Below, piece after piece: positions 5,744-20,469 of a stretch of DNA of 62,931 bases. The DNA lies in NCBI GenBank assembly GCA_963578705.1, contig CAUZDT010000001.1, forward strand, positions 1-62,931, written 5' to 3'. Both the position numbers and the translations under genes were made by a program. The notes under the pieces are model-generated. The model saw nothing but the letters and a program-made list of their open reading frames with translations. It made no database searches and was not told where the DNA came from. Position 1 is the first letter of the stretch. Every line of letters begins with the position of its first letter. The stretch is from Candidatus Thalassarchaeaceae archaeon (GTDB taxonomy: Archaea; Thermoplasmatota; Poseidoniia; MGIII; CG-Epi1).

Positions 5744-7369
5744 GTGGAAGCGGAGGAGGCGCTGCGCGCAGCCGCATTGCAGGAGGCGGCGCGGCATGGT
5801 GCGGCGCAGCCGAAGTCGGTGCTGGGGAAGGTGCTCGGCACGCACGCCGAACTGCGGCCGCAGGCGCGCGAACTCGGCGCGGTCGCCGAGCGCATCGTTG
5901 CCGAAGTGAACGCGCTCTCGCCGGCAGAAGTGGCAGCGCAGGCGCCCGCCCCGCCGGAGCCTCGCCAGGCGACTGACGGCGGCCGTACGGGGCTCCCGTC
6001 GCTCGAGGCCGACGGTGCGGTGGTACTGCGCTTCGCGCCCGGTCCGAGCGGGCCGCTGCACCTCGGCCATTCGCGCGCAGTGGCGCTGAACCACGCCTAC
6101 CGCGAACTGCACGATGGCAAGCTCATCCTGCGGCTGGAGGACACCAACCCGGCGGCGGTCGACCCCGGGGCGTACGACCTCATCACTGCCGATATGGAGT
6201 GGCTCGGCGCGACGCCCGACGAGACTGTCGTCCAGTCGGACCGGCTCGAGATTTACTACGGCGACGCCCGCGAGCTGCTGTCGCGCGGTGCGTCCTACGT
6301 TTGCCATTGCGACGCCGAGGAGTGGCGCGAGCTGAAGCGCCAGAGCACCGCCTGCCCCTGCCGCCCCGGCGAGCCTGAAGTGCAGCTGGCGGCGTTCGAA
6401 GCGCTGCTCGCGGGGGGCGACGGCATCGTCGTCGTGAAAACCGACCTCGAAGACCGGAACCCGGCGCTGCGCGACTTCGTCGCCTTGCGGGTCGCTGAAA
6501 CACCGCACCCGCGGCAGGGCGATGCGTGGCGGCTCTGGCCGACCTACAACTTCGCGGTCGCGGTCGACGATTACCGGCTCGGCGTGACGCACGTGCTGCG
6601 CGGCAAGGACCACCTCAACAACACGCAGCGCCAGCAGTGGGTCTACCGTCACCTCGGCTGGGACGAGCCGCAGTTCATCCACTACGGACTGGTCTCGATT
6701 CCCGGCACGTTGCTCAAGACCAGCACCATCCGCGAAGGCCTCACTGCTGGGAAATACTCAGACTGGGACGACCCCCGGCTCGCGACGCTGGCGGCGCTAC
6801 GGCGACGCGGCTACCAGCCGCAGGCCATCATGGATTACTGGGTTGCCGCCGGTGTCAAGGAGGCCGACATCACGCTCTCGTGGCAGAACCTGGAGGCGGC
6901 CAACCGCGCGCTCGTCGAGCCCGAAGCGAAGCGGCTTTTCTGGGTGCCGGAACCGGTCGAGCTGCTGCTCGACGCACCGCAACCACTGGAGAAGCGGGCG
7001 CCGTTCCACCCCGACCGTGACGAGATGGGCGAGCGACGCGAAACGGTCGCGCCCGGCGCGACCGTTTTGCTGCCGGCAGCCGACGTGCAGAAGCTGGCGG
7101 AGGGCGACCTGCTACGGCTCAAGAACTTGTGCAACTGCCGGCTGCGCGACGGCCGGCTCGAGCACGCCGGTGACGACCCCGTCAAGGGCGTGCCAATCGT
7201 CCAGTGGTGCGCTGCGGGCACACCGCTGCAGCTGCTGCGGCCGGACGGCTCGACGGCCGACGGAATCGCGGAGCCGGCGGCCGCGGAACTGGAAGGCGAA
7301 GTGGTGCAGTTCGAGCGGGTCGGCTTCGTCAGGTTGGAGCGAGGGCAAGCGCCGTTCCTGCATCGCTGA
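5744..7369 (+). CDS. gltX: Glutamyl-tRNA synthetase, archaeal/eukaryal type
   Basis: LRFAPGPSGPLHLGHSRAVALN (HIGH region), LRLEDTNP, VLRGKDHLNNTQRQ. Length 541 aa with the N-terminal helical segment typical of archaeal GluRS. Confidence 0.92.
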   Translation: MEAEEALRAAALQEAARHGAAQPKSVLGKVLGTHAELRPQARELGAVAERIVAEVNALSPAEVAAQAPAPPEPRQATDGGRTGLPSLEADGAVVLRFAPGPSGPLHLGHSRAVALNHAYRELHDGKLILRLEDTNPAAVDPGAYDLITADMEWLGATPDETVVQSDRLEIYYGDARELLSRGASYVCHCDAEEWRELKRQSTACPCRPGEPEVQLAAFEALLAGGDGIVVVKTDLEDRNPALRDFVALRVAETPHPRQGDAWRLWPTYNFAVAVDDYRLGVTHVLRGKDHLNNTQRQQWVYRHLGWDEPQFIHYGLVSIPGTLLKTSTIREGLTAGKYSDWDDPRLATLAALRRRGYQPQAIMDYWVAAGVKEADITLSWQNLEAANRALVEPEAKRLFWVPEPVELLLDAPQPLEKRAPFHPDRDEMGERRETVAPGATVLLPAADVQKLAEGDLLRLKNLCNCRLRDGRLEHAGDDPVKGVPIVQWCAAGTPLQLLRPDGSTADGIAEPAAAELEGEVVQFERVGFVRLERGQAPFLHR

Positions 7370-9421: not shown

Positions 9422-12043
9422 CTAGCTATATTCCGCTTCCATCCGGGTCTTGTAGTCCATGACCAGGGCATGCGCCCCGTCAATATCGTTAATGGACAGG
9501 ACCACGAGGTCATTCTCCCGGGCCGAATCCAGGGCAAACTTCAGCGCATCCTTTTCATCGCGGAATGTAGTAATTGCTGATTCATCTACGCCGAATTTCA
9601 TAAGGTATTTTTTATATAAATCAACTATTTCTCCGGGTTTTCTTCCCCGCAGGTAATATTCGAAAACAATAATCTGGTCGAATCCCTCACTAAGGATTTT
9701 TGAACATAGTTCAAAATCTACTTCCCGTCTGTCTCCCGGCAGGGAAACCGTCACTATCCTCCGCTCCGCCGGCAGGGCCAGCGCGAAGTCCTTCAGGGCC
9801 TGATAACCCGCCTGATTATGGGCGTAATCAATCAGGACCTTGAATGTCAGCATATCCTCCAGCGTCGTTCTTCCCGGGGTCTGGGAATAGGAAGGGAAGA
9901 AAGTACTGATTCCCGCCTTGATATTGTCGTCGCTGATACCGAGGGCAAAGGTTGCACCGACAGCTGCCAGCGTGTTCATGATGTTGAAGGCCGCTTTTCC
10001 ATCGAACGTGATGGGGATGTCGGCCAGCGGCAGCAGGGGGTATTTCCAAGGGCCCTTGTAGATGCAGACCTGGTTGTCTTCCAGGACTATGGAAATACCA
10101 TTGTTTTTCTTGTGGTCTCGGATTATCTCGTTCCGTGGGTCCAGGCTGTAATAAATCGTTTCGCCGCTGACGTACCGTTCCATCCGGGCTACCAAGGGGT
10201 CATCAGCATTCAGGATTGCGTGGCCGTCTTTCCTGACTATTTGCGGGATGACGCTCTTGACCTGGGCGAGCTGTTTCAACGTATCAATGCCTTTCAGCCC
10301 CAGGTGGTCGGGAGAGATGTTCGTGACGACCCCCACGTTGCACTCCCGGTAGCCCAGCCCGGCCCGCAGGATGCCTCCGCGCGCGCACTCCAGGACCGCC
10401 GCGTCAATCGTCGGGTCAGACAGCACCAGCCCGTGCGACTTGGGGCCGGTCATGTCCCCGGGGTAGATCAGCCGGTTCTTGATGTAGACCCCTTCGGTGG
10501 TGCACATCCCGACCGTCGAGCCGGCTCCCTTCAGGATGTGGTTGATGAGCCGCGTGGTCGTGGTCTTGCCATTTGTCCCGGTCACCGCAACGATGGGAAT
10601 CGTAGAGCGGACTCCGGGCGGGAAGAGCATATCGATGACCGGCTCCGCCACGTTCCGCGCCAGCCCCGAAGTCGGCTGCAGGTGCATCCGGAAACCGGGG
10701 GCGGCATTGATTTCGACAATGCCGCCCCCGTTCTCGCTCAGCGTCGTCGTCAGGTCGGGCGCGATTATGTCGACGCCGCCGATGTCAAGCCCAATCAGCC
10801 GAATTGCTCGCTCGGCGATGTGGACGTTCGCCGGATGGACCTCGTCGGTGATGTCCACCGCCGTGCCGCCCGTCGAGAGATTTGCGGTGGTTTTCAGCGT
10901 CAGTATCTCGCCTTTCGGAAGCACTGACTTCAGGATGTAACCAGCGTCCTCGATTAGCCGCTCAGTCTGGTGGTCAACCGTGATTTCGGTCAGGACGTTC
11001 TCGTGCCCGTAACCCCGCAGCGGGTTCTCGTTCTCCCGGTCAATCAGTGCCTGCAGGGTATCCTTGCCGTTGCCGATGACGTGCGCCGGGACACGGTGAG
11101 CTGCCGCGACCATTTTGCCGTTGATGACCAGCACCCGGTAGTCATTCCCCGCCAGCGTTTTTTCGATGATGACCCACCCCTTCCGGGATTGTAATTTTGC
11201 GGCGTCAAACGCCGTGGCGAAATGCTCCAGGTTGTTGACGCCTACCGTCACACCCCGGCCGTGGTTTCCATCCAACGGCTTGACGACCAGCGGATACTCG
11301 ATTTTCCTGATTGATTTTTTCGCATCCTCGAATTTTCGCGTGACGATGCCCCGGGCAACGGGAATTCCGTGGTCCTCAAGGATTTTCTTGGTTTCCCATT
11401 TGTCTGCGGCGTAATCGACGGCGATGCTCGCCGTCCGGTCTGTCATGGTGGCGCGGATTTTGCGCTGCTGATTTCCATAACCCAGCTGGACAAAAGAGCC
11501 CCGGTTCAGGCGGATGTAGGGAATCCCCCGCCTCACCGCTTCCGCGACGATGGAACCGGTGCTGGGGCCCAGCTTGTATTTTTCCCGCAGTTCCTTCAGC
11601 TCCTGTATAGCGGCTTCAATGTCAAAGTCCTTTTTCTCTACGAGGTTTTCACAGAGTTCCACTGCCAGAATTCCTGCCCGTTTCCCGGCTTCGCCTACGA
11701 CATATGAATAGATTACATTGTACACCCCTCGTTCGCTGGTTTCACGGGTCCTGCCGAATCCAGTCTCCATCTCCGCCAGAGTCTGGAGCTCAAGTGCGAC
11801 ATGCTCGGCCACATGCCCCATCCAAGTCCCCTTCTTCACCCGCTGGAAAAACCCACCCTTCGAGCCGATACTGCAACGGTGGTCGTAGAGCGACGGCAAC
11901 GCCTTCTTCAGGCGACCGTAGAAGCCCCTGATCTTGTTGGTCGGCGTCTCCTCGAGTTCGCCAATATCCAGGACTAACTGGATGCAGGGCCGGCGGGTCC
12001 AGTAGTTGGGCCCTGAAAGCGTGCGTATTTCGCGGATTTTCAT
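9422..12043 (-). CDS. cphA: Cyanophycin synthetase (CphA1-like: N domain + ATP-grasp + Mur-ligase-like domain)
   Basis: 873 aa, starting MKIREIRTLSGPNYW.... ATP-grasp region (PLVVKPLDGNHGRGV). Mur-ligase P-loop (VAVTGTNGKTTTTRL) and DYAHN motif. Architecture and length are typical of CphA. Visibly AT-richer and Lys/Ile-richer than its neighbours. Confidence 0.9.
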   Translation of the reverse strand: MKIREIRTLSGPNYWTRRPCIQLVLDIGELEETPTNKIRGFYGRLKKALPSLYDHRCSIGSKGGFFQRVKKGTWMGHVAEHVALELQTLAEMETGFGRTRETSERGVYNVIYSYVVGEAGKRAGILAVELCENLVEKKDFDIEAAIQELKELREKYKLGPSTGSIVAEAVRRGIPYIRLNRGSFVQLGYGNQQRKIRATMTDRTASIAVDYAADKWETKKILEDHGIPVARGIVTRKFEDAKKSIRKIEYPLVVKPLDGNHGRGVTVGVNNLEHFATAFDAAKLQSRKGWVIIEKTLAGNDYRVLVINGKMVAAAHRVPAHVIGNGKDTLQALIDRENENPLRGYGHENVLTEITVDHQTERLIEDAGYILKSVLPKGEILTLKTTANLSTGGTAVDITDEVHPANVHIAERAIRLIGLDIGGVDIIAPDLTTTLSENGGGIVEINAAPGFRMHLQPTSGLARNVAEPVIDMLFPPGVRSTIPIVAVTGTNGKTTTTRLINHILKGAGSTVGMCTTEGVYIKNRLIYPGDMTGPKSHGLVLSDPTIDAAVLECARGGILRAGLGYRECNVGVVTNISPDHLGLKGIDTLKQLAQVKSVIPQIVRKDGHAILNADDPLVARMERYVSGETIYYSLDPRNEIIRDHKKNNGISIVLEDNQVCIYKGPWKYPLLPLADIPITFDGKAAFNIMNTLAAVGATFALGISDDNIKAGISTFFPSYSQTPGRTTLEDMLTFKVLIDYAHNQAGYQALKDFALALPAERRIVTVSLPGDRREVDFELCSKILSEGFDQIIVFEYYLRGRKPGEIVDLYKKYLMKFGVDESAITTFRDEKDALKFALDSARENDLVVLSINDIDGAHALVMDYKTRMEAEYS

Positions 12044-12888
12044 TGGACCACTTCTTCGGCCGGTATCGCGATTTCTTCCCCGATATCCTCGTTCCGGATG
12101 GGTGTCTTCGTGGCGAAGTCGAAACCATCCCCGTCAGCCAGGACATGCATCATCAGCCCGAAAATCGAAATCGGTTTTCCCGCATGGCCATCGGCATAGC
12201 TGGAATAGGCCACTCCGCCCCCATCCAGGACCGTGACGGTCCCCCTTCCCATGACCGAAGCGACCGTACCGTTCTCGATGTAGAGTGCCGTATTTTCATC
12301 GATGCCCACGCCAAGATTCCGGGGATGCGACATGACCGCTGCCGCCAGCCTGTAAATCCGGTCCCGTTGCCTGAAATGCTGGTCGATTATCACGTCCTGG
12401 ATTAGCCCCAATCCTGCCGAAAGGCGAATTGATTTCCGGCGTGAATAGGTGAAAGGCATCCCACCGGCAACCATGACCGAGCTCATAATTGACGCGCCGG
12501 CGCTGGTCCCTCCCGTCGGAATCCCCTTCCGGAACTGCCTTGCGAGCGCCGCTTCCAGCCGGGTGCCGCCGATGGTGGCGGCCACTTTCACCTGGTTACC
12601 TCCCGAAATGAAAATCCCGGTGGCTTGCTTGATTAGCTCTATCGCCTCGGCCGAGTTGGCTTCCTCCCGCGACAGGATCGGAAGCACCTTGACCGAAGCA
12701 GCACCCATTCCGAAAAATATCTTCTGGTATTTTTCGCCGGTTTTCAGCGGGACCTGACTGGCGCAGGTGATGAGGGTGATGCGGCTCTGGGCGCCTCCGC
12801 ACAAGTCGAAGAAAAAGCGCAGGAGCCGGGCCCCCCGACCCTTTTTTTCGGCTCCGCCAATAACGAAAAGTTTCGTGGTTTCAGGCAT
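12040..12888 (-). CDS. cphB: Cyanophycinase (peptidase S51)
   Basis: 282 aa with LFVIGGAEKK, FISGGNQ and catalytic-Ser block GGTSAGASIM, typical of CphB/S51. Its stop overlaps the cphA start by 4 nt. Confidence 0.88.
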   Translation of the reverse strand: MPETTKLFVIGGAEKKGRGARLLRFFFDLCGGAQSRITLITCASQVPLKTGEKYQKIFFGMGAASVKVLPILSREEANSAEAIELIKQATGIFISGGNQVKVAATIGGTRLEAALARQFRKGIPTGGTSAGASIMSSVMVAGGMPFTYSRRKSIRLSAGLGLIQDVIIDQHFRQRDRIYRLAAAVMSHPRNLGVGIDENTALYIENGTVASVMGRGTVTVLDGGGVAYSSYADGHAGKPISIFGLMMHVLADGDGFDFATKTPIRNEDIGEEIAIPAEEVVQ

Positions 12889-14915: not shown

Positions 14916-15818
14916 GTGCGCGCGCCCCTGCGACTCTGGCTGCGGTTCATCGGCGTCGAGTTCTGGCTGGTCGCGCTGGTGCCGTTCCAGATTGGTTTCA
15001 TCGTCGGCGCGCAGGAGTGGAGCAGCCGCGCCGGCCTGCTCGGGTTGGTAACGGTCGCGCTCCTGACGGCGAGCAGTTTCGTCCTGAACCACCTCTGCGA
15101 CCTCGAGACCGACCGGCGGAATCCCCGCAAGGCGTTCAGCCTGCTCGTGCGGGGCGACCTCACCCCGGCCGCCGGATGGGCGCTCTTTGGCGCGCTGCAG
15201 GTCGCGACGCTGGCGCTGGCGGCGTTCGCGGGACGCGATTTCCTGCTCTGCCTGCTCTGCCTCACGGCGATTTCGCTCGCCTACAACGTCGCGCCGCTGC
15301 GGCTCAAGGAGCGGCCCGGCCTCGATATAGCCTCCAACGGTGTCAGCCTCGGCTTCCTGCTGCCGCTGGCGGGCTGGTCGCTCTCGCAGCCGCTGGCGGA
15401 ATTCCCGCGACTCTACTTCGCCTCGGTCGTCTGCTACCTCGTCGCCTTCTACTGCCCCACGATGGCGGTCGACGTTGCCGCCGACCGCGCGGTCGGGACG
15501 ACCACCTTCGCGACGCGCTTCGGCGCGGTGGCGACGATGCGGCTCTCGTGGGCGGCGACGGCCGCCGGCGCCGGCCTGTTGCTCTGGAGCGGGGTGACCG
15601 ACGTGTTTCCGTGGGACAACAACCTGCTCTGGTGGACCGGCTGGATACTACTGCTGCAGCCGCTAGCGCACTGGCGTGAACTGCCGCCCAACGCGGCGCC
15701 GAGTTACGAGACGGTGCGCCGCGGCTCGATTATCCTCGCGACGATTGCGGCCGCGGCAACCACGTCGTTCCTCTGGCTCTACCTGGCCGGCTCTCCCGTC
15801 CCGCCCTTCAGGCGTTGA
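14916..15818 (+). CDS. UbiA-family prenyltransferase (specificity unknown; DGGGP-synthase-like size)
   Basis: Multi-TM. First Asp-rich motif is NHLCDLETDRRNPRK and the second is AVDVAADRAVG. About 300 aa. GTG start. Confidence 0.7.
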   Translation: MRAPLRLWLRFIGVEFWLVALVPFQIGFIVGAQEWSSRAGLLGLVTVALLTASSFVLNHLCDLETDRRNPRKAFSLLVRGDLTPAAGWALFGALQVATLALAAFAGRDFLLCLLCLTAISLAYNVAPLRLKERPGLDIASNGVSLGFLLPLAGWSLSQPLAEFPRLYFASVVCYLVAFYCPTMAVDVAADRAVGTTTFATRFGAVATMRLSWAATAAGAGLLLWSGVTDVFPWDNNLLWWTGWILLLQPLAHWRELPPNAAPSYETVRRGSIILATIAAAATTSFLWLYLAGSPVPPFRR

Positions 15819-15987
15819 CGAAGCCGAGAACCTTGCGGCAGTTTGCGCAGGAGATTGACATCACCTGTCCGCCGCCGGTATCCAGGTCGATGGTGCTGAA
15901 GCGGTAGGTATTGTCGACCACGCCGATGTCTTTCTTGCAGAAGGGGCATTTCTCGGGCGCGTCCGGGTCTGCCGAGCTGCTGAACAT
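15808..15987 (-). CDS. Hypothetical small zinc-ribbon protein (59 aa)
   Basis: This is the 3' end of the otherwise Ser/Arg-rich ORF 15808..16734. From ATG 15987 it reads MFSSSADPDAPEKCPFCKKDIGVVDNTYRFSTIDLDTGGGQVMSISCANCRKVLGFVNA (CxxC...CxxC, normal composition). TATA-like box about 25 nt upstream. Confidence 0.55.
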   Translation of the reverse strand: MFSSSADPDAPEKCPFCKKDIGVVDNTYRFSTIDLDTGGGQVMSISCANCRKVLGFVNA

Positions 15988-16008
15988 GAGTGCAGCGCAG
16001 GCTGCCGC

Positions 16009-16715: not shown

Positions 16716-17390
16716 TTACTTGCTGGCACCGCAAGCGCTGCAGCCACCGCCGCCCGCCTCGCCACCGCCGCCCGCCTCGCCACCGCCGCCCGCCTTGCCA
16801 CCGCCGGCGCCCTTGCCGGGCTCGAAGTAGGGGTTCTCGCCCTGCTCGTGGTCGGTGACGTCGACGACCTCGCTGATTTCCGGGACTTTCTGCCGCAGGT
16901 AGGACTCGATTCCATGCTTGAGCGTCACGTCGGCCATGCCGCAGCCCTGGCAGCCGCCACCCATCTGGACATACGCCTTGCCCTCCTCGATCCGCTGCAG
17001 CGTGACGACACCGCCGTGGTTGGCGATGCTGGGGTTAATCTCGTTGACAAGCACTGCCTGCACGCGCTCAAAGAGTTCCTCGCCGCTCGCCGGGGTCATC
17101 TCACCCACGGCCGGCTCGCCGCTTGCAATCTGCGCGCGGATGGCGTCGCCGATTAGCTTGCCGATTTCGGGCCACGCCGCGTCGCCCTGCTTGGTTACGC
17201 TGACCGTGTCGCGCGCGATGGTGACCGCGCTGACGTCCGGCAGCGCGAACAGCGCCTCGGCCAGCGGCGCCCCTTCGGCCGCCGCGGCGGAAGTGAAACT
17301 AGCGTTGCCACCATGCAGGCTGTGGTCGACGACAAAACGGCACACCTGCTGGTCGGCGGTCGGCTCGCCCCGGATACGGATTTCGGCCAT
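16716..17390 (-). CDS. NifU/Nfu-type Fe-S cluster scaffold protein with Gly-rich repeat tail ending in CSAC
   Basis: An Nfu_N-like N-terminal half is followed by a NifU C-terminal domain (NPSIANHGGVVTL...VQMGGGCQGCGMADVTLK). The tail is GKGAGGGKAGGGGEAGGGGEAGGGGCSACGASK. Confidence 0.85.
   Translation of the reverse strand: MAEIRIRGEPTADQQVCRFVVDHSLHGGNASFTSAAAAEGAPLAEALFALPDVSAVTIARDTVSVTKQGDAAWPEIGKLIGDAIRAQIASGEPAVGEMTPASGEELFERVQAVLVNEINPSIANHGGVVTLQRIEEGKAYVQMGGGCQGCGMADVTLKHGIESYLRQKVPEISEVVDVTDHEQGENPYFEPGKGAGGGKAGGGGEAGGGGEAGGGGCSACGASK
16744..16815 (-). repeat. In-frame 18-nt tandem repeat (about 4 copies) encoding the GGGGEA/GGGKAG tail of Nfu
   Basis: Plus-strand units are CCACCGCCGCCCGCCTCG (16744, 16762), CCACCGCCGCCCGCCTTG (16780) and CCACCGCCGGCGCCCTTG (16798). 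Confidence 0.85.
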
Positions 17391-17416
17391 CGTGTGGGGT
17401 GTGTGCTATCGCGCTA

Positions 17417-18790
17417 TTAAGCGCTTGGTTCACCAAGTTTCAGCAGCCCCGGACTCGGCTCAGCGCAGCAATACCAGCTTTCAGAGAGTCGCGGTCCCGG
17501 CGTCGCCACCACCATCGGCGGCGGCGGTTGCCCCGCCGCGGAGCGCGCCACGCTCCAGAGCGCGTGGAAAAGCGTCGCATCGTCGCCCCCCTCTTCGGCG
17601 ACCGCGACCGCCTCGTGGTGCAGCGCGTCCATGTAGGGGTCGGGATGCTCCCAGCGGTGGCCGAAGTCCTTCTCGCGGAGCCCGCGCAAGTGCGGCGCCA
17701 TCTCGGGGTGGTCGAGCAGCGCCGACCCGGGCGGCAGCAGCAGCCGGATGGTGAACTGCACCGGCTCGATGGCTCCCACCAAGGCATTATCGGCGGCGAA
17801 CTCGAACAGCTCGAGATAGTCATCGAGCGTCGTCCATGGGGTGAAGGCGACCAGCGACGGTCGCATCGCAATCCCCGCCGCGCGCGTCGCCGCCAGCGCC
17901 CGCTTGACGTCGGAGCGCGTGTGCCCCTTGTCAAGGATTTCGAGCACGTGGTCGCTCAATGACTCAACCGCCGTGACGATGAACAGGCAGCCACACTCGG
18001 CCAGCTGAGGGAGCAAATCGGCGTGGTCCAGCAGGTGCTCGACCTTGGCGGTGATGTCGAATGTCAGCTGCGGGAACTCGGCGTGCAGCGCCTCGGCCAC
18101 CCGCAAGGCGTGCCGTGGGCCGTTCAGGAAATCAGGGTCGCCGAAGGTGATGTGGCGCGCCCCGCCGGCCACCTGCTTGCGCACCTGCTGCAGCACGTTC
18201 TCGACGGGGACGACAAAGAAACGGCCGTTGTAGACCGGCGTGACCGGGCAATGGCGGCAAGTGTACTTGCACCCCCGCGTTGCCTCGGCAAAGCCCGCCT
18301 GCACGGAATGGCCGTTGTCCAACAACTCGGCGTAGCCGCCCGCAAGGCCACTGCCGTCGGGAATCGGGTAATCCGGTCGCGCCAGCAGCGGCGCTGCCGG
18401 CATTGGCGCGGATTCGCCCCGCGCCAGCGCCTCACAGAGCGCCACCAGCGCCTGCTCCGACTCCCCGCCAAGGCAGCTGTCTGCAACGTTCGCGAGCAGC
18501 CATTCGCGGTTGAGCTGCGCGTAAAGGCCGTGGAAGCAGATGTGCGCCGCCGCGTTCAGCTCCCGAATGCGCCGGGCGACCGGCACCGCCAGCCGCAGCG
18601 CGGTGTGCATCGGGACCGAAATCGCGACCAGCTGCGCCTCGCGCACTGCCGCCTCGTCCAGCTCGCAGGTCGACAAGTCAATTACTTGCGGTGAGAAACC
18701 GGCACGTCGCAGGAACGCCGCCGGCCAAGCGATGCCGGCCGGTGCGTGCCCCAGCTCGTAGCACGAGAGCAGCAAGATGTCGCCGTGCAT
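17417..18790 (-). CDS. Radical SAM protein with N-terminal B12-binding-like domain and C-terminal CCAEP tail
   Basis: CX3CX2C motif in ATRGCKYTCRHCPV. The N-terminal about 130 aa look Rossmann-like (ILLLSCYELGHAP...VAISVPMHTA). The C-terminus is ...SESWYCCAEPSPGLLKLGEPSA. ATG 18790 preferred; a TTG at 18811 overlapping the upstream stop is an alternative. Confidence 0.8.
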   Translation of the reverse strand: MHGDILLLSCYELGHAPAGIAWPAAFLRRAGFSPQVIDLSTCELDEAAVREAQLVAISVPMHTALRLAVPVARRIRELNAAAHICFHGLYAQLNREWLLANVADSCLGGESEQALVALCEALARGESAPMPAAPLLARPDYPIPDGSGLAGGYAELLDNGHSVQAGFAEATRGCKYTCRHCPVTPVYNGRFFVVPVENVLQQVRKQVAGGARHITFGDPDFLNGPRHALRVAEALHAEFPQLTFDITAKVEHLLDHADLLPQLAECGCLFIVTAVESLSDHVLEILDKGHTRSDVKRALAATRAAGIAMRPSLVAFTPWTTLDDYLELFEFAADNALVGAIEPVQFTIRLLLPPGSALLDHPEMAPHLRGLREKDFGHRWEHPDPYMDALHHEAVAVAEEGGDDATLFHALWSVARSAAGQPPPPMVVATPGPRLSESWYCCAEPSPGLLKLGEPSA

Positions 18791-18807
18791 GGCGGGCGCG
18801 CCGCCGC

Positions 18808-20214
18808 TCAAACCTCGAACGCCGCTGCATCGGCCGCCGCGTCGCCGATGGCGCGCAGCCGCGCGAACTCGAAGATGCCGCTGTTGTGCCCGTCACTGAA
18901 GTCGAGCCGCACCGCGTAGCGGCCGACGCTGGCGCTGCTCGCGACCGTGATATCAGCAGGTATCTGCCCCGGCTGTAGTAGCTTCTCACCCGAGAACTCG
19001 TCGACACAGCCGGCGCAGGGGCATTCACTGCGCAGCGTGTGCGCCGGGATAATTTGCTCGGCACCGTCGCGCCACTTGACCTGCACCGCGCCGCCCGCCA
19101 CCACCGCCAGCTCCTGCGGCGCGGCGGGGTTGAGCGCCTCGCCCAGCGCCGTCGCGGAGGAACGCGCCATCGCTTCGCCCGCCAGCGCAGCGAACGCGTC
19201 GCCGATTTCGCCTTCCGCGATTGGTTCGCCAGCGTCCATCGCGGCGGCGATACTGGAGTTGAGCGGGATGCGCGCCAGCAACGGAATGTCTAGTTTCTGC
19301 GACGCGGCCGTGCCGCCGCCCTCGCGGAAGATGGGGTCATTGTGACCGCACTCGGGGCAGTGATAGTAGGCCATGTTCTCGACGATGCCAAGTATCGGAA
19401 CCTTGACCTGCTGGAACATGCGCAGCCCCTTCTCGGCGATGGTGTATGCCACTTCCTGCGGCGTCGTGACAATGATAGCTCCTGACAGCGGCACGGCTTG
19501 GGTAAGCGTCAGCTGTATGTCGCCGGTCCCCGGTGGCAAATCCACGAAAAGGTAGTCGAGTTCGCCCCACGCCACCGAGCCCAGGAACTGCTGCACCAGC
19601 TGCGACGCAATCGGTCCGCGCCATATCAGCGGCGTCTCGCTCGTCGTCAGGAAGCCCATCGACATCACCTTCAGCCCGTGCGCTTCGACCGGCTGCAGTA
19701 CCCCCTGCTGGCCTCCCGCCAGGCTATGGTCGCGCAGGCCGAGCATCGCCGGCACCGACGGGCCGTAGACGTCGACGTCCAGAATCCCAACGCGCGCGCC
19801 AGCCCGGGCACAGGCGAACGCCAGGTTGACCGCGACGGTCGACTTGCCGACGCCGCCCTTGCCGCTCGCGACAGCGATAATCTGCTTCACCTGTGCCAGC
19901 GCGGCGGGCGTCGTCGCCGCTTCCAGCGCCGGCAGCCGCGGCACCTCCCACGCCGCCTCGATATCAACGTGAGTAACGTCGTCGAGCGCCAGCAGCGCCT
20001 CGCGGCACTGCGCCGCCAGCGCATCGCCGTGTGGGGACGCGGGCGACGGCAGCCGCAGCGTGAAGCGCACGCGGCTGCCGCTGGCGGTCAGCCCGCGCAC
20101 GTAGCCCAGGCTGACGACGTCCCGCTTCAGTAGCGGGTCTCTGACTGCGCGCAGCACTTCTTCGGCTCCCATGGGCGACGCCACGGGACGCCCGTTGTAT
20201 TTGGAGTTTTTCAT
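18808..20214 (-). CDS. apbC: Mrp/NBP35/ApbC-family Fe-S cluster carrier ATPase fused to N-terminal DUF59 and C-terminal DUF971 domains
   Basis: DUF59-like N-terminus (VLRAVRDPLLKRDVVSLGYVRGL). Deviant Walker A (VASGKGGVGKST). CPECG motif. C-terminal about 90 aa (VQVKWRDGAEQIIPAHTLRSECPCAGCVDE...YAVRLDFSDGHNSGIFEF) match the DUF971 pattern. Confidence 0.85.
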   Translation of the reverse strand: MKNSKYNGRPVASPMGAEEVLRAVRDPLLKRDVVSLGYVRGLTASGSRVRFTLRLPSPASPHGDALAAQCREALLALDDVTHVDIEAAWEVPRLPALEAATTPAALAQVKQIIAVASGKGGVGKSTVAVNLAFACARAGARVGILDVDVYGPSVPAMLGLRDHSLAGGQQGVLQPVEAHGLKVMSMGFLTTSETPLIWRGPIASQLVQQFLGSVAWGELDYLFVDLPPGTGDIQLTLTQAVPLSGAIIVTTPQEVAYTIAEKGLRMFQQVKVPILGIVENMAYYHCPECGHNDPIFREGGGTAASQKLDIPLLARIPLNSSIAAAMDAGEPIAEGEIGDAFAALAGEAMARSSATALGEALNPAAPQELAVVAGGAVQVKWRDGAEQIIPAHTLRSECPCAGCVDEFSGEKLLQPGQIPADITVASSASVGRYAVRLDFSDGHNSGIFEFARLRAIGDAAADAAAFEV

Positions 20215-20348
20215 CAAATGCTGACGCTGGGCGCACTACATCACAATGTTGTTTCCGTCAAGCAACCGGCCGTCGGCGCAGGTTGCGCCCCGGGCGGAGT
20301 GAGGAGGTTTTGCGAGCGCCGCCGCCTGAGGCCGCTCGGAAAAGGTTG

Positions 20349-20469
<121 letters not shown>

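Follow-up and report, generated by a model that had tools for sequence, protein, structure and literature searches.

ArsL is a radical S-adenosylmethionine (SAM) enzyme that carries the canonical CX3CX2C motif and binds SAM in the usual bidentate manner, yet yields methylthioadenosine (MTA) and a 3-amino-3-carboxypropyl (ACP) species. The ACP group is passed to As(III) bound by the cysteines of the C-terminal tail, which hold no auxiliary cluster, and the reaction has been reconstituted with only SAM, a reductant, and As(III). An organometallic [Fe3S4-Fe-ACP]3+ intermediate with an Fe-C(gamma) bond has been proposed, which is attacked by the arsenic nucleophile, and an ArsL variant with the vicinal CC dyad alone is highly active on methylarsenite. 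To our knowledge, ArsL is so far the sole radical SAM enzyme of canonical fold known to cleave SAM at C(gamma). Here, we analyse three genes that lie head to tail and tightly packed on the minus strand of a stretch of 62,931 nucleotides from Candidatus Thalassarchaeaceae archaeon (GenBank assembly GCA_963578705.1, contig CAUZDT010000001.1, positions 1 to 62,931), which as a whole is called the window in the following. The genes encode an Mrp-type iron-sulfur (Fe-S) cluster carrier, a radical SAM protein ending in a CCAEP tail, and an Nfu-type Fe-S carrier. The family of the radical SAM protein, NCBIfam NF040546, had already been named. What is added here are its conserved partners, namely Nfu or other iron traffickers and an L-amino-acid ligase, and its kinship with ArsL. 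The arrangement of Mrp, radical SAM protein, and Nfu itself is lineage-specific and not a conserved unit.

The CUAEP/CCAEP-tail family and its kinship with ArsL

The radical SAM gene (17417-18811, with a TTG start or an alternative ATG start at 18790) encodes a protein of 464 residues. From its N-terminus the protein is built of a Rossmann-like domain similar to B12-binding domains, a radical SAM barrel, a helical C-terminal domain, and a tail, and it ends in ...SESWYCCAEPSPGLLKLGEPSA. In searches with hidden Markov models (HMMs) it matches NF040546, the "CUAEP/CCAEP-tail radical SAM (seleno)protein" family, with 619.2 bits (E = 4.4e-186, cut-off 500) over residues 12-453 and model positions 1-462 of 468, and it carries every invariant of this family. 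The tail motif C-[U/C]-A-E-P following W-[F/Y] is present as WYCCAEP (residues 446-452; 17456-17476), and the CX3CX2C motif, the site of the SAM-cleaving [4Fe-4S] cluster, as CKYTCRHC (residues 181-188; 18248-18271). The Pfam model Radical_SAM (PF04055) matches with 58.5 bits, and the N-terminal domain scores marginally above the cut-off of the B12-binding model (PF02310; 35.3 bits, cut-off 32.1). NCBIfam models of PhpK, HpnR, and other B12-type radical SAM families show weak similarity, and the models of the MiaB family give at most 22 bits. The protein is confirmed as a full-length Cys-variant member of NF040546. The preliminary description of this DNA, which had been made from the letters alone, gave the protein the CCAEP-tail name, and with the score obtained here the match is a genuine one at the family level. 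The family is large and comprises more than 8000 clusters at 90% identity; of 8000 clusters that were scored, 7984 passed E <= 1e-10. It was listed as uncharacterised in Haft's 2022 preprint, and searches of the later literature, other names of the family included, found no paper that assigns it a function, which agrees with what the preliminary description had said about its substrate and function.

For comparison, 80 related loci were sampled from reference genomes of about 17 phylum-level groups. Residue conservation was counted over 81 family members and set against ArsL-family proteins, and a neighbour-joining tree of the radical SAM proteins was rooted on the ArsL family. When the DNA is read, the tail motif C-[U/C]-A-E-P is found in 76 of the 80 loci. 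Its second codon is TGA in 59 of these 76 loci and TGC or TGT in the other 17, and the sequence AEPT..Q is conserved in frame beyond it. Most NF040546 proteins in the databases seem to stop at ...PRLTEPWFC because their next codon is this TGA. Therefore, NF040546 is predominantly a family of selenoproteins and the window protein represents a Cys variant, in which C449 aligns with the selenocysteine (Sec) of most homologues. Sec thus occupies the second position of the dyad, and not that of the first Cys as had been supposed. C-U dyads are rare and have otherwise been found in proteins thought to handle soft metals, such as HgcA, the SAO system, and MerT (Haft, 2022 preprint). One of the genes with a TGA codon is located on a contig labelled Nitrosotalea sp., and its protein groups with those of Dormibacterota and Rokubacteria in the tree. 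Probably, this contig was mis-binned and does not testify to the use of Sec by a thaumarchaeon. Another family member (49% identity) is encoded by a cultured aerobic thermophile, Thermomicrobium roseum DSM 5159, on its megaplasmid NC_011961. This gene, TRD_RS12835, stands alone and is flanked by a divergent pyridoxal phosphate (PLP)-dependent aminotransferase and a major facilitator superfamily (MFS) transporter.

The second-best NCBIfam model for the window protein is NF040542, the model of ArsL and its RCCLKC tail, whose cut-off of 450 is not reached (281.4 bits, E = 1.5e-83). Over its entire length, the window protein shares 37% identity with an RCCLKC-tail protein of Bacillus cereus, and the vicinal CC dyads of the two proteins align. 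CX3CX2C is invariant in all 81 family members and in the ArsL-family proteins, and the scaffold shared with the ArsL family further comprises E19, D45, R179-G180, D225, D227, H259, E283, W326, and R356. The shared invariants span the cluster loop, much of the barrel, and the N-terminal domain. Judged from these alignments, NF040546 is the sister family of ArsL. An assignment of the window protein as an orthologue of ArsL was rejected, because its HMM score is below the cut-off, its tail is different, and it lacks an arsenic context: ars genes are present around the RCCLKC genes, but none was found beside the window gene or among the conserved neighbours in the 80 loci.

Specific to the CUAEP family are C17, H22, M68-H69-T70, Y97, H187, H297, and R317, and C275 is mostly conserved. 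According to the alignment and the predicted secondary structure, C17 (78 of 81 members) and H22 (80 of 81) are part of the motif SCYELGH (18746-18766), located where beta-strand 1 of the N-terminal domain ends. The corresponding residues of the ArsL family are N/I and F/Y, respectively. M68-H69-T70 belongs to the motif PMHT (18602-18613) after beta-strand 3 in the alignment and is invariant in all 81 members, whereas the ArsL family has L-F-D. C17 and M68-H69 are thus placed at that edge of the Rossmann-like domain that binds cofactors in related enzymes. An AlphaFold2 model of the protein was built from 121 sequences and has a mean predicted local distance difference test (pLDDT) score of 94.3 and a predicted template modelling (TM) score of 0.92. 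Residues 441-450, which include the CC dyad, have a pLDDT of about 85, and the tail is predicted to be docked rather than floppy. The neighbours of this model in a Foldseek search, at TM scores of about 0.55-0.66, are AprD4 as the best match, OxsB, TsrM, MiaB, MgmA, and TokK. Neither the sequence search nor the fold search found a close solved structure of an ArsL or a CUAEP protein, and the neighbours are generic class-B-like proteins.

Genes that accompany the radical SAM gene

The gene neighbourhoods were searched by tblastn with the window Nfu and by unbiased clustering of open reading frames (ORFs), and the families of the neighbours were confirmed with Pfam. Nfu adjoins the radical SAM gene in 31 of the 80 loci. 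Of the 73 loci whose downstream sequence is long enough, 27 have it immediately downstream on the same strand. The groups with a linked Nfu are Rokubacteria/Methylomirabilota, Acidobacteriota, Nitrospirota, Planctomycetota, Ignavibacteria, SAR324, and archaea. The 28 bacterial loci among them come from many phyla, and their Nfu usually follows on the same strand at a distance below 200 nt. Often, other genes stand in the place of Nfu, namely YggX (Iron_traffic, 8 loci), an IscA/HesB-type gene (5 loci), or a DUF169 gene (13-14 loci), while CDGSH genes (11 loci) are found together with Nfu; all of these are Pfam-confirmed. An Fe-S or iron trafficker is located within 2.5 kb of the radical SAM gene in 43 of the 75 evaluable loci. 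The farther flanks provide an internal control: the trafficker families gave 69 matches in the 359 kb of near flank (<= 2.5 kb) and none in the 769 kb beyond. The genetic coupling of Nfu and the radical SAM gene is therefore real. The preliminary description had coupled the enzyme to Fe-S delivery by both Mrp and Nfu and had made this depend on the conservation of the neighbourhood. This part of its proposal holds for Nfu but not for Mrp, because Mrp-DUF971 is linked to the radical SAM gene in only three loci of the sample, all of them archaeal. Cobalamin-related genes were not found among the conserved neighbours in the 80 loci. DUF169 has received only incidental mention in the literature, near HgcA-like genes of Nitrospina and in a list of genes co-occurring with selenium use. 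In the Planctomycetota loci L004, L014, and L042 a DUF169 gene directly follows the radical SAM gene, and these three loci and L034 encode a PLP enzyme resembling ornithine/diaminopimelate/arginine decarboxylases (a name given from reading the sequence) 1-2 kb downstream on the same strand. The latter is a hint that the product of the radical SAM pathway is an amino acid.

A further partner was located by stricter re-clustering of the ORFs and targeted tblastn searches. This ATP-grasp gene is present in 35 of the 80 loci, in 34 of them within about 2 kb of the radical SAM gene and in one at a distance of 6 kb (tblastn), and is the most frequent conserved partner of the family. Together with Nfu it is found in 27 loci. 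The encoded proteins are 37-75% identical across phyla and consist of the domains ATPgrasp_N, ATP-grasp_4, and LAL_C2. Their best matches in the PDB are the L-amino acid ligase BL00235 (140 bits) and, next, the alanine-anticapsin ligase BacD (72 bits). NCBIfam agrees with this classification, and the scores are far below every equivalog cut-off in that collection. In a sister archaeal sublineage (L003, L090, L091) the gene order is Mrp - radical SAM - Nfu - ATP-grasp - TPR, and on a Rokubacteria contig the same ATP-grasp gene follows NifU. Because the ligase and Nfu are conserved and Mrp is not, the widely conserved module consists of the ATP-grasp ligase, the radical SAM protein, and Nfu, and not of Mrp, the radical SAM protein, and Nfu. 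The ligase-bearing L003 is basal to the clade of the window, L001, and L002 in the neighbour-joining tree. Therefore, the linkage to the ligase has been lost secondarily in the sublineage of the window, in which the radical SAM gene was kept under selection. ArsL-family loci were also seen on plasmids of B. cereus (pAH820_272), Klebsiella pneumoniae, and Pantoea agglomerans, and these contain an ATP-grasp_4 ligase, a CobW-type GTPase, and an aquaporin/MIP channel; on the two from enterobacteria, ArsM and an MFS transporter are encoded as well. Arsinothricin-type clusters with a ligase may thus produce the arsenical amino acid in a ligated (peptide) form.

The archaeal locus and its origin

In the window, the Mrp gene (18808-20214) encodes 468 residues and is of the HCF101 type, with a DUF59 domain (PF01883, FeS_assembly_P; 54 bits), an Mrp/NBP35 P-loop ATPase domain (PF10609, ParA/NUBPL; 321 bits), and a DUF971 domain (PF06155, GBBH-like_N; 80.6 bits). 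Its motifs can be read as the Walker A sequence GKGGVGKS (19840-19863), the cluster-bridging CPEC (19348-19359), and CPCAGC within DUF971 (19006-19023). The score with the ApbC equivalog NF008669 is 321.4 bits and does not reach the cut-off of 348. The stop codon of Mrp and the TTG start of the radical SAM gene overlap by 4 nt. If translation begins at the ATG at 18790, which is the start used by the close homologues, the two genes are 17 nt apart. Another gap of 26 nt separates the radical SAM gene from the Nfu gene (16716-17390; 224 residues), whose product is NFU1-like with Nfu_N (PF08712, 53.4 bits) and NifU (PF01106, 76.1 bits) domains and the CxxC motif in GGCQGC (16941-16958). With the NfuA equivalog TIGR03341 it scores 100.9 bits (cut-off 269), and the C-terminal half alone matches. 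The protein ends in the tail GKGAGGGKAGGGGEAGGGGEAGGGGCSACGASK, which comprises a Gly-rich linker and CSAC (16731-16811), followed by GASK. The positions, strand, packing, motifs, and tails given in the preliminary description are all present in the DNA, and the Pfam and NCBIfam searches uphold its domain and family calls (DUF59, Mrp, DUF971, B12-binding-like, CCAEP-tail radical SAM, Nfu).

The combination of DUF59, Mrp, and DUF971 in one protein is not an oddity. It is the architecture described for the HCF101 of plants and apicomplexans, and it is common to nearly all of the best 120 Mrp homologues. Those with 83-87% identity belong, where named, to Candidatus Poseidoniia or Thermoplasmatota, and on this ground the host is a Marine Group II (MGII) archaeon. 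In other Poseidoniia (L087, L088, L089), whose Mrp proteins are 55-58% identical to that of the window, the gene order is LeuRS - TIM barrel - Mrp - Nfu - TPR. These loci have no radical SAM gene, and Mrp is separated from Nfu by 36-53 nt. Only in the archaeal lineage of the window is Mrp separated from Nfu by the radical SAM gene. Thus, Mrp and Nfu are a pre-existing housekeeping pair into which the radical SAM gene was inserted, and not the dedicated Fe-S delivery pair that had been assumed, and the ancestral locus is LeuRS - TIM-barrel gene - Mrp - Nfu. The supposed conserved triad is confined to this one lineage as far as Mrp is concerned, and Mrp-DUF971 was consequently rejected as a conserved partner of the enzyme. 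The closest relative of the radical SAM protein, with 99% identity, was found in a metagenome-assembled genome of a marine "Methanobacteriota archaeon". In the tree, the bacterial proteins group largely by phylum and the four archaeal sequences form a single clade nested among bacteria, and from this topology the gene has probably been transferred from bacteria into one archaeal lineage. By the insertion the order of the radical SAM gene followed by Nfu, as found in many bacterial phyla, was recreated. Within the archaeal lineage, purifying selection acts on each of the three genes. The ratio of nonsynonymous to synonymous substitutions (dN/dS) is 0.07-0.18 for all three in pairs with dS >= 0.3; in the comparisons with L002 and L003 it is 0.13-0.18 for the radical SAM gene, about 0.08 for Nfu, and 0.09-0.15 for Mrp. 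The near-identical pairs of the window and L001 give values of up to 0.34.

The tail of Nfu deserves separate consideration. Its Gly-rich linker is encoded by an 18-nt tandem repeat (16743-16806) of 3.6 copies with 97% matches, followed by the codons of CSAC (16731-16742). The window, L001, L002, L003, and L090 all have CSACGASK unchanged and differ in the length of the linker, which suggests replication slippage in the latter. This pattern would fit a linker that is flexible and carries a function at its end. All 28 bacterial Nfu proteins linked to the radical SAM gene end in ...NPYY.P.K, and a Gly-rich CSAC tail is absent from them; it was therefore rejected as a family-wide feature of the linked Nfu. 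In the MGII locus L087, which has no radical SAM gene, Nfu (6411-7097) ends in another Cys-rich tail, ...SGCGCSSGSSPDSHSQGSGCGCSH (GCGCS...GCGCSH), and the Nfu of L089, from a third lineage of the Poseidoniia, has no tail. C-terminal Cys-rich extensions of Nfu accordingly recur in Poseidoniia with or without the radical SAM gene. Because the bacterial cassette Nfu proteins lack the CSAC tail and a different Cys tail exists where there is no radical SAM gene, the tail belongs to the archaeal Nfu lineage rather than to the radical SAM system. These comparisons leave the idea unsupported that the CC tail of the enzyme and the CSAC tail of Nfu cooperate as swinging arms.

Several other genes surround the three. 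Directly upstream of Mrp on the same strand is a stand-alone 5S rRNA gene (20348-20468; Rfam RF00001, 96.5 bits), and the window contains no further rRNA genes. A gene for a cyanophycin synthetase (873 residues) and a cyanophycinase-like gene (282 residues) adjoin at 9422-12888 on the minus strand, and the same pair is found in L002. They are followed by an aspartate-dehydrogenase-like gene and an aminotransferase gene; the first three of these four names come from reading the sequence and not from HMMs. A putative small zinc-ribbon protein (...CPFCKK...CANCRK...) is encoded at 15808-15990 on the minus strand at the end of a long shadow ORF. It has no Pfam match, and its ORF overlaps the annotated start of a TraB/GumN-family gene on the opposite strand.

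Possible chemistry and comparison with known systems

Given the kinship with ArsL, we propose tentatively, and with slightly less than even confidence, that the enzyme performs an ArsL-like ACP chemistry in which a soft nucleophile is presented on the tail, the ligase acts downstream, and the Fe-S carriers serve the cluster or clusters of the enzyme. The 37% identity and the shared scaffold suggest that SAM would be cleaved reductively at C(gamma), giving MTA and a cluster-bound ACP species. The ACP group would then be captured by a soft nucleophilic atom that is held or presented by the docked Cys-Sec or Cys-Cys dyad. This atom could be a chalcogen or a metalloid. Arsenic is unlikely because the gene context is devoid of ars genes, and the context hints at sulfur, selenium, or cluster-derived chemistry instead. 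The product would be a gamma-substituted 2-aminobutyrate, which in most organisms the partner ATP-grasp ligase may condense with another amino acid. Nfu (with Mrp upstream in the window), and YggX, IscA-type, or CDGSH proteins elsewhere, would load or rebuild the cluster or clusters. Either the organometallic chemistry damages the cluster, or the candidate Cys/His site (C17, H22, H69, H187, H297, and the tail) might hold a second metal centre that is consumed.

Some observations weigh against this proposal. The regiochemistry of SAM cleavage is not readable from sequence, and the His and Cys invariants specific to the family together with the B12-binding-like domain leave room for a quite different chemistry. 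The CUAEP tail offers two thiol/selenol ligands, one of them usually Sec, where ArsL has three, and its linker is about 45 residues longer. About one third of the loci, including all nine from Gemmatimonadota, have no partner nearby. The ATP-grasp partner is absent from the 63-kb window, in which the ATP-grasp domain of the cyanophycin synthetase gives a weak match. In addition, the window Nfu is slightly closer to the native Nfu of MGII (189 bits) than to the bacterial cassette Nfu (<= 159 bits), which slightly favours a native origin over one from a bacterial cassette, and it may be a general cellular Nfu.

The unusually tight and varied linkage to Fe-S carriers would also be in keeping with an enzyme that inserts sulfur or selenium in the manner of LipA, BioB, or MiaB, with C17, the histidines, and the Cys-Sec pair of the tail ligating a second cluster that is sacrificed and rebuilt by the carriers. 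NfuA, which rebuilds the sacrificial cluster of Escherichia coli LipA, is a well-established precedent. Cys and His are frequent among the family invariants (C17, H22, H69, H187, H297), MiaB is among the fold neighbours (TM 0.55-0.64), and C17 follows beta-strand 1, where methylthiotransferases place the first Cys of their auxiliary cluster. However, methylthiotransferases have three cysteines in this domain and the window protein has one, with D45 and M68-H69 found after beta-strands 2 and 3, and it does not classify with MiaB or RimO. C275 is located at the start of a barrel strand and, according to the model, probably far from the active site. Moreover, the sister ArsL has no auxiliary cluster and uses its tail to bind the substrate. 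A sacrificial cluster is therefore unlikely in our view, but it can coexist with the ACP chemistry, because ACP and a cluster sulfide would combine to a homocysteine-type product. Even less probable, and hardly to be expected, is a cobalamin-dependent (class B) enzyme that methylates or alkylates a substrate or a heteroatom on the tail, as PhpK methylates phosphorus. The score with the Pfam B12-binding model and the weak similarity to PhpK and HpnR speak for it, as do OxsB, TsrM, TokK, and MgmA among the fold neighbours and the position of the family-specific invariants on the cofactor-binding edge of the Rossmann domain. But ArsL, whose N-terminal domain is homologous at the overall identity of 37%, worked with SAM, reductant, and As(III) alone, cobalamin-related genes are missing among the conserved neighbours, and the best fold match, AprD4, is a diol dehydratase and not a methylase. 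AprD4 is not known to use cobalamin.

The tail itself could be interpreted differently. In mammalian thioredoxin reductase a vicinal C-U dyad on the C-terminal tail serves as a redox centre, and a (selenenyl)sulfide resembling its GCUG could donate a hydrogen atom or electrons to a canonical 5'-deoxyadenosyl reaction without binding any substrate. This precedent, the preference for Sec in 59 of the 76 members, and the swinging-arm thiols proposed for this locus earlier would agree with such a role. The aligned CC dyad of the homologous ArsL binds the substrate, though, the other prokaryotic C-U dyads (HgcA, the SAO system, MerT) have been read as soft-metal binders, and the tail is predicted, with fair confidence of the model, to be docked, so that we regard a purely redox-active tail as very improbable. 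It could also be that Mrp and Nfu are general carriers between which the radical SAM gene has landed, with a function unrelated to Fe-S trafficking. The Mrp-Nfu pairs without it in L087, L088, and L089, the restriction of the Mrp linkage to three archaeal loci, and the similarity of the window Nfu to the native MGII protein would all be explained by such a coincidence. It is hard to reconcile with an Nfu gene that adjoins the radical SAM gene in 28 bacterial loci of many phyla and usually follows it within 200 nt in the same orientation, with the replacement of Nfu by YggX, IscA-type, or CDGSH genes elsewhere, and with the lack of any of these genes in the 769 kb beyond 2.5 kb. Mere juxtaposition is thus the better reading for Mrp but not for Nfu, and as an account of the whole locus it is quite unlikely.

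If the ArsL-like ACP transfer is pursued further, a speculative picture emerges, to which we attach a rather low probability. The CUAEP/CCAEP enzyme, the ligase, and Nfu would constitute a widespread undescribed pathway, in which sulfur or selenium on the Cys-Sec tail captures the ACP group and the resulting (seleno)homocysteine-like amino acid is converted to a small thiol or selenol dipeptide. The sulfur or selenium species would possibly be drawn from an Fe-S centre that the carriers replenish, and a C-S or C-Se bond would be formed. This would be the second natural noncanonical use of ACP by a canonical radical SAM fold and the first with Sec in a substrate-holding tail. As it stands, NF040546 is a large sister family of ArsL, as judged by sequence, that is spread over many soil and marine phyla and consists mostly of selenoproteins. 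If it shares the chemistry of ArsL, noncanonical ACP transfer would be common in nature and not peculiar to one antibiotic pathway, and the Cys-Sec tail would be a new kind of substrate-holding device. The conserved partners make the function of the family experimentally approachable, the natural Cys variants (the window gene and those of Nitrospira) circumvent the problems of selenoprotein expression, and Thermomicrobium roseum offers a cultured host. The window in addition presents the precise insertion of a gene, probably of bacterial origin, into an Fe-S carrier operon of an archaeon.

Each component of the locus has a described counterpart. The window Mrp shares with HCF101 and the Mrp-NBP35-ApbC carriers, which are common in archaea and bacteria, the DUF59 domain, the P-loop ATPase with CxxC, and DUF971, but falls below the equivalog cut-off of ApbC (321 against 348 bits). 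The close pairing, at the genetic level, of the window Nfu with one radical SAM enzyme is reminiscent of NfuA, which serves LipA and MiaB. The window Nfu differs from NfuA by its low score (101 bits, cut-off 269) and by the Gly-rich CSACGASK tail, which is restricted to this archaeal lineage. The family-linked ATP-grasp gene corresponds in its domains and its matches to BL00235 and BacD to the L-amino acid ligases, which also include DdaF and are partners in pathways of "warhead" amino acids; it differs in scoring below their equivalog cut-offs and in its absence from the window. The differences from ArsL are those of the tail, which in the window is of the W[FY]C[UC]AEP type with no third Cys and thus no RCCLKC, and of the residues C17, H22, M68-H69-T70, Y97, H187, H297, and R317, which ArsL lacks. 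The gene contexts differ as well, because ArsL is found in arsenic islands with ArsR, ArsM, ACR3, ArsC/D/A, an aquaporin, and a CobW GTPase, whereas the CUAEP genes are accompanied by Nfu, YggX, IscA, CDGSH, and DUF169, and never by ars genes. What the window protein has in common with ArsL is the succession of a Rossmann-like N-terminal domain, a CX3CX2C barrel, and a C-terminal domain, and a vicinal Cys-Cys dyad in the C-terminal tail, the dyad of ArsL aligning with the CC/CU dyad of the CUAEP family. An ATP-grasp ligase is encoded nearby in the ArsL loci too, and the combination of a tail-bearing radical SAM protein with an ATP-grasp ligase is common to both sister families.

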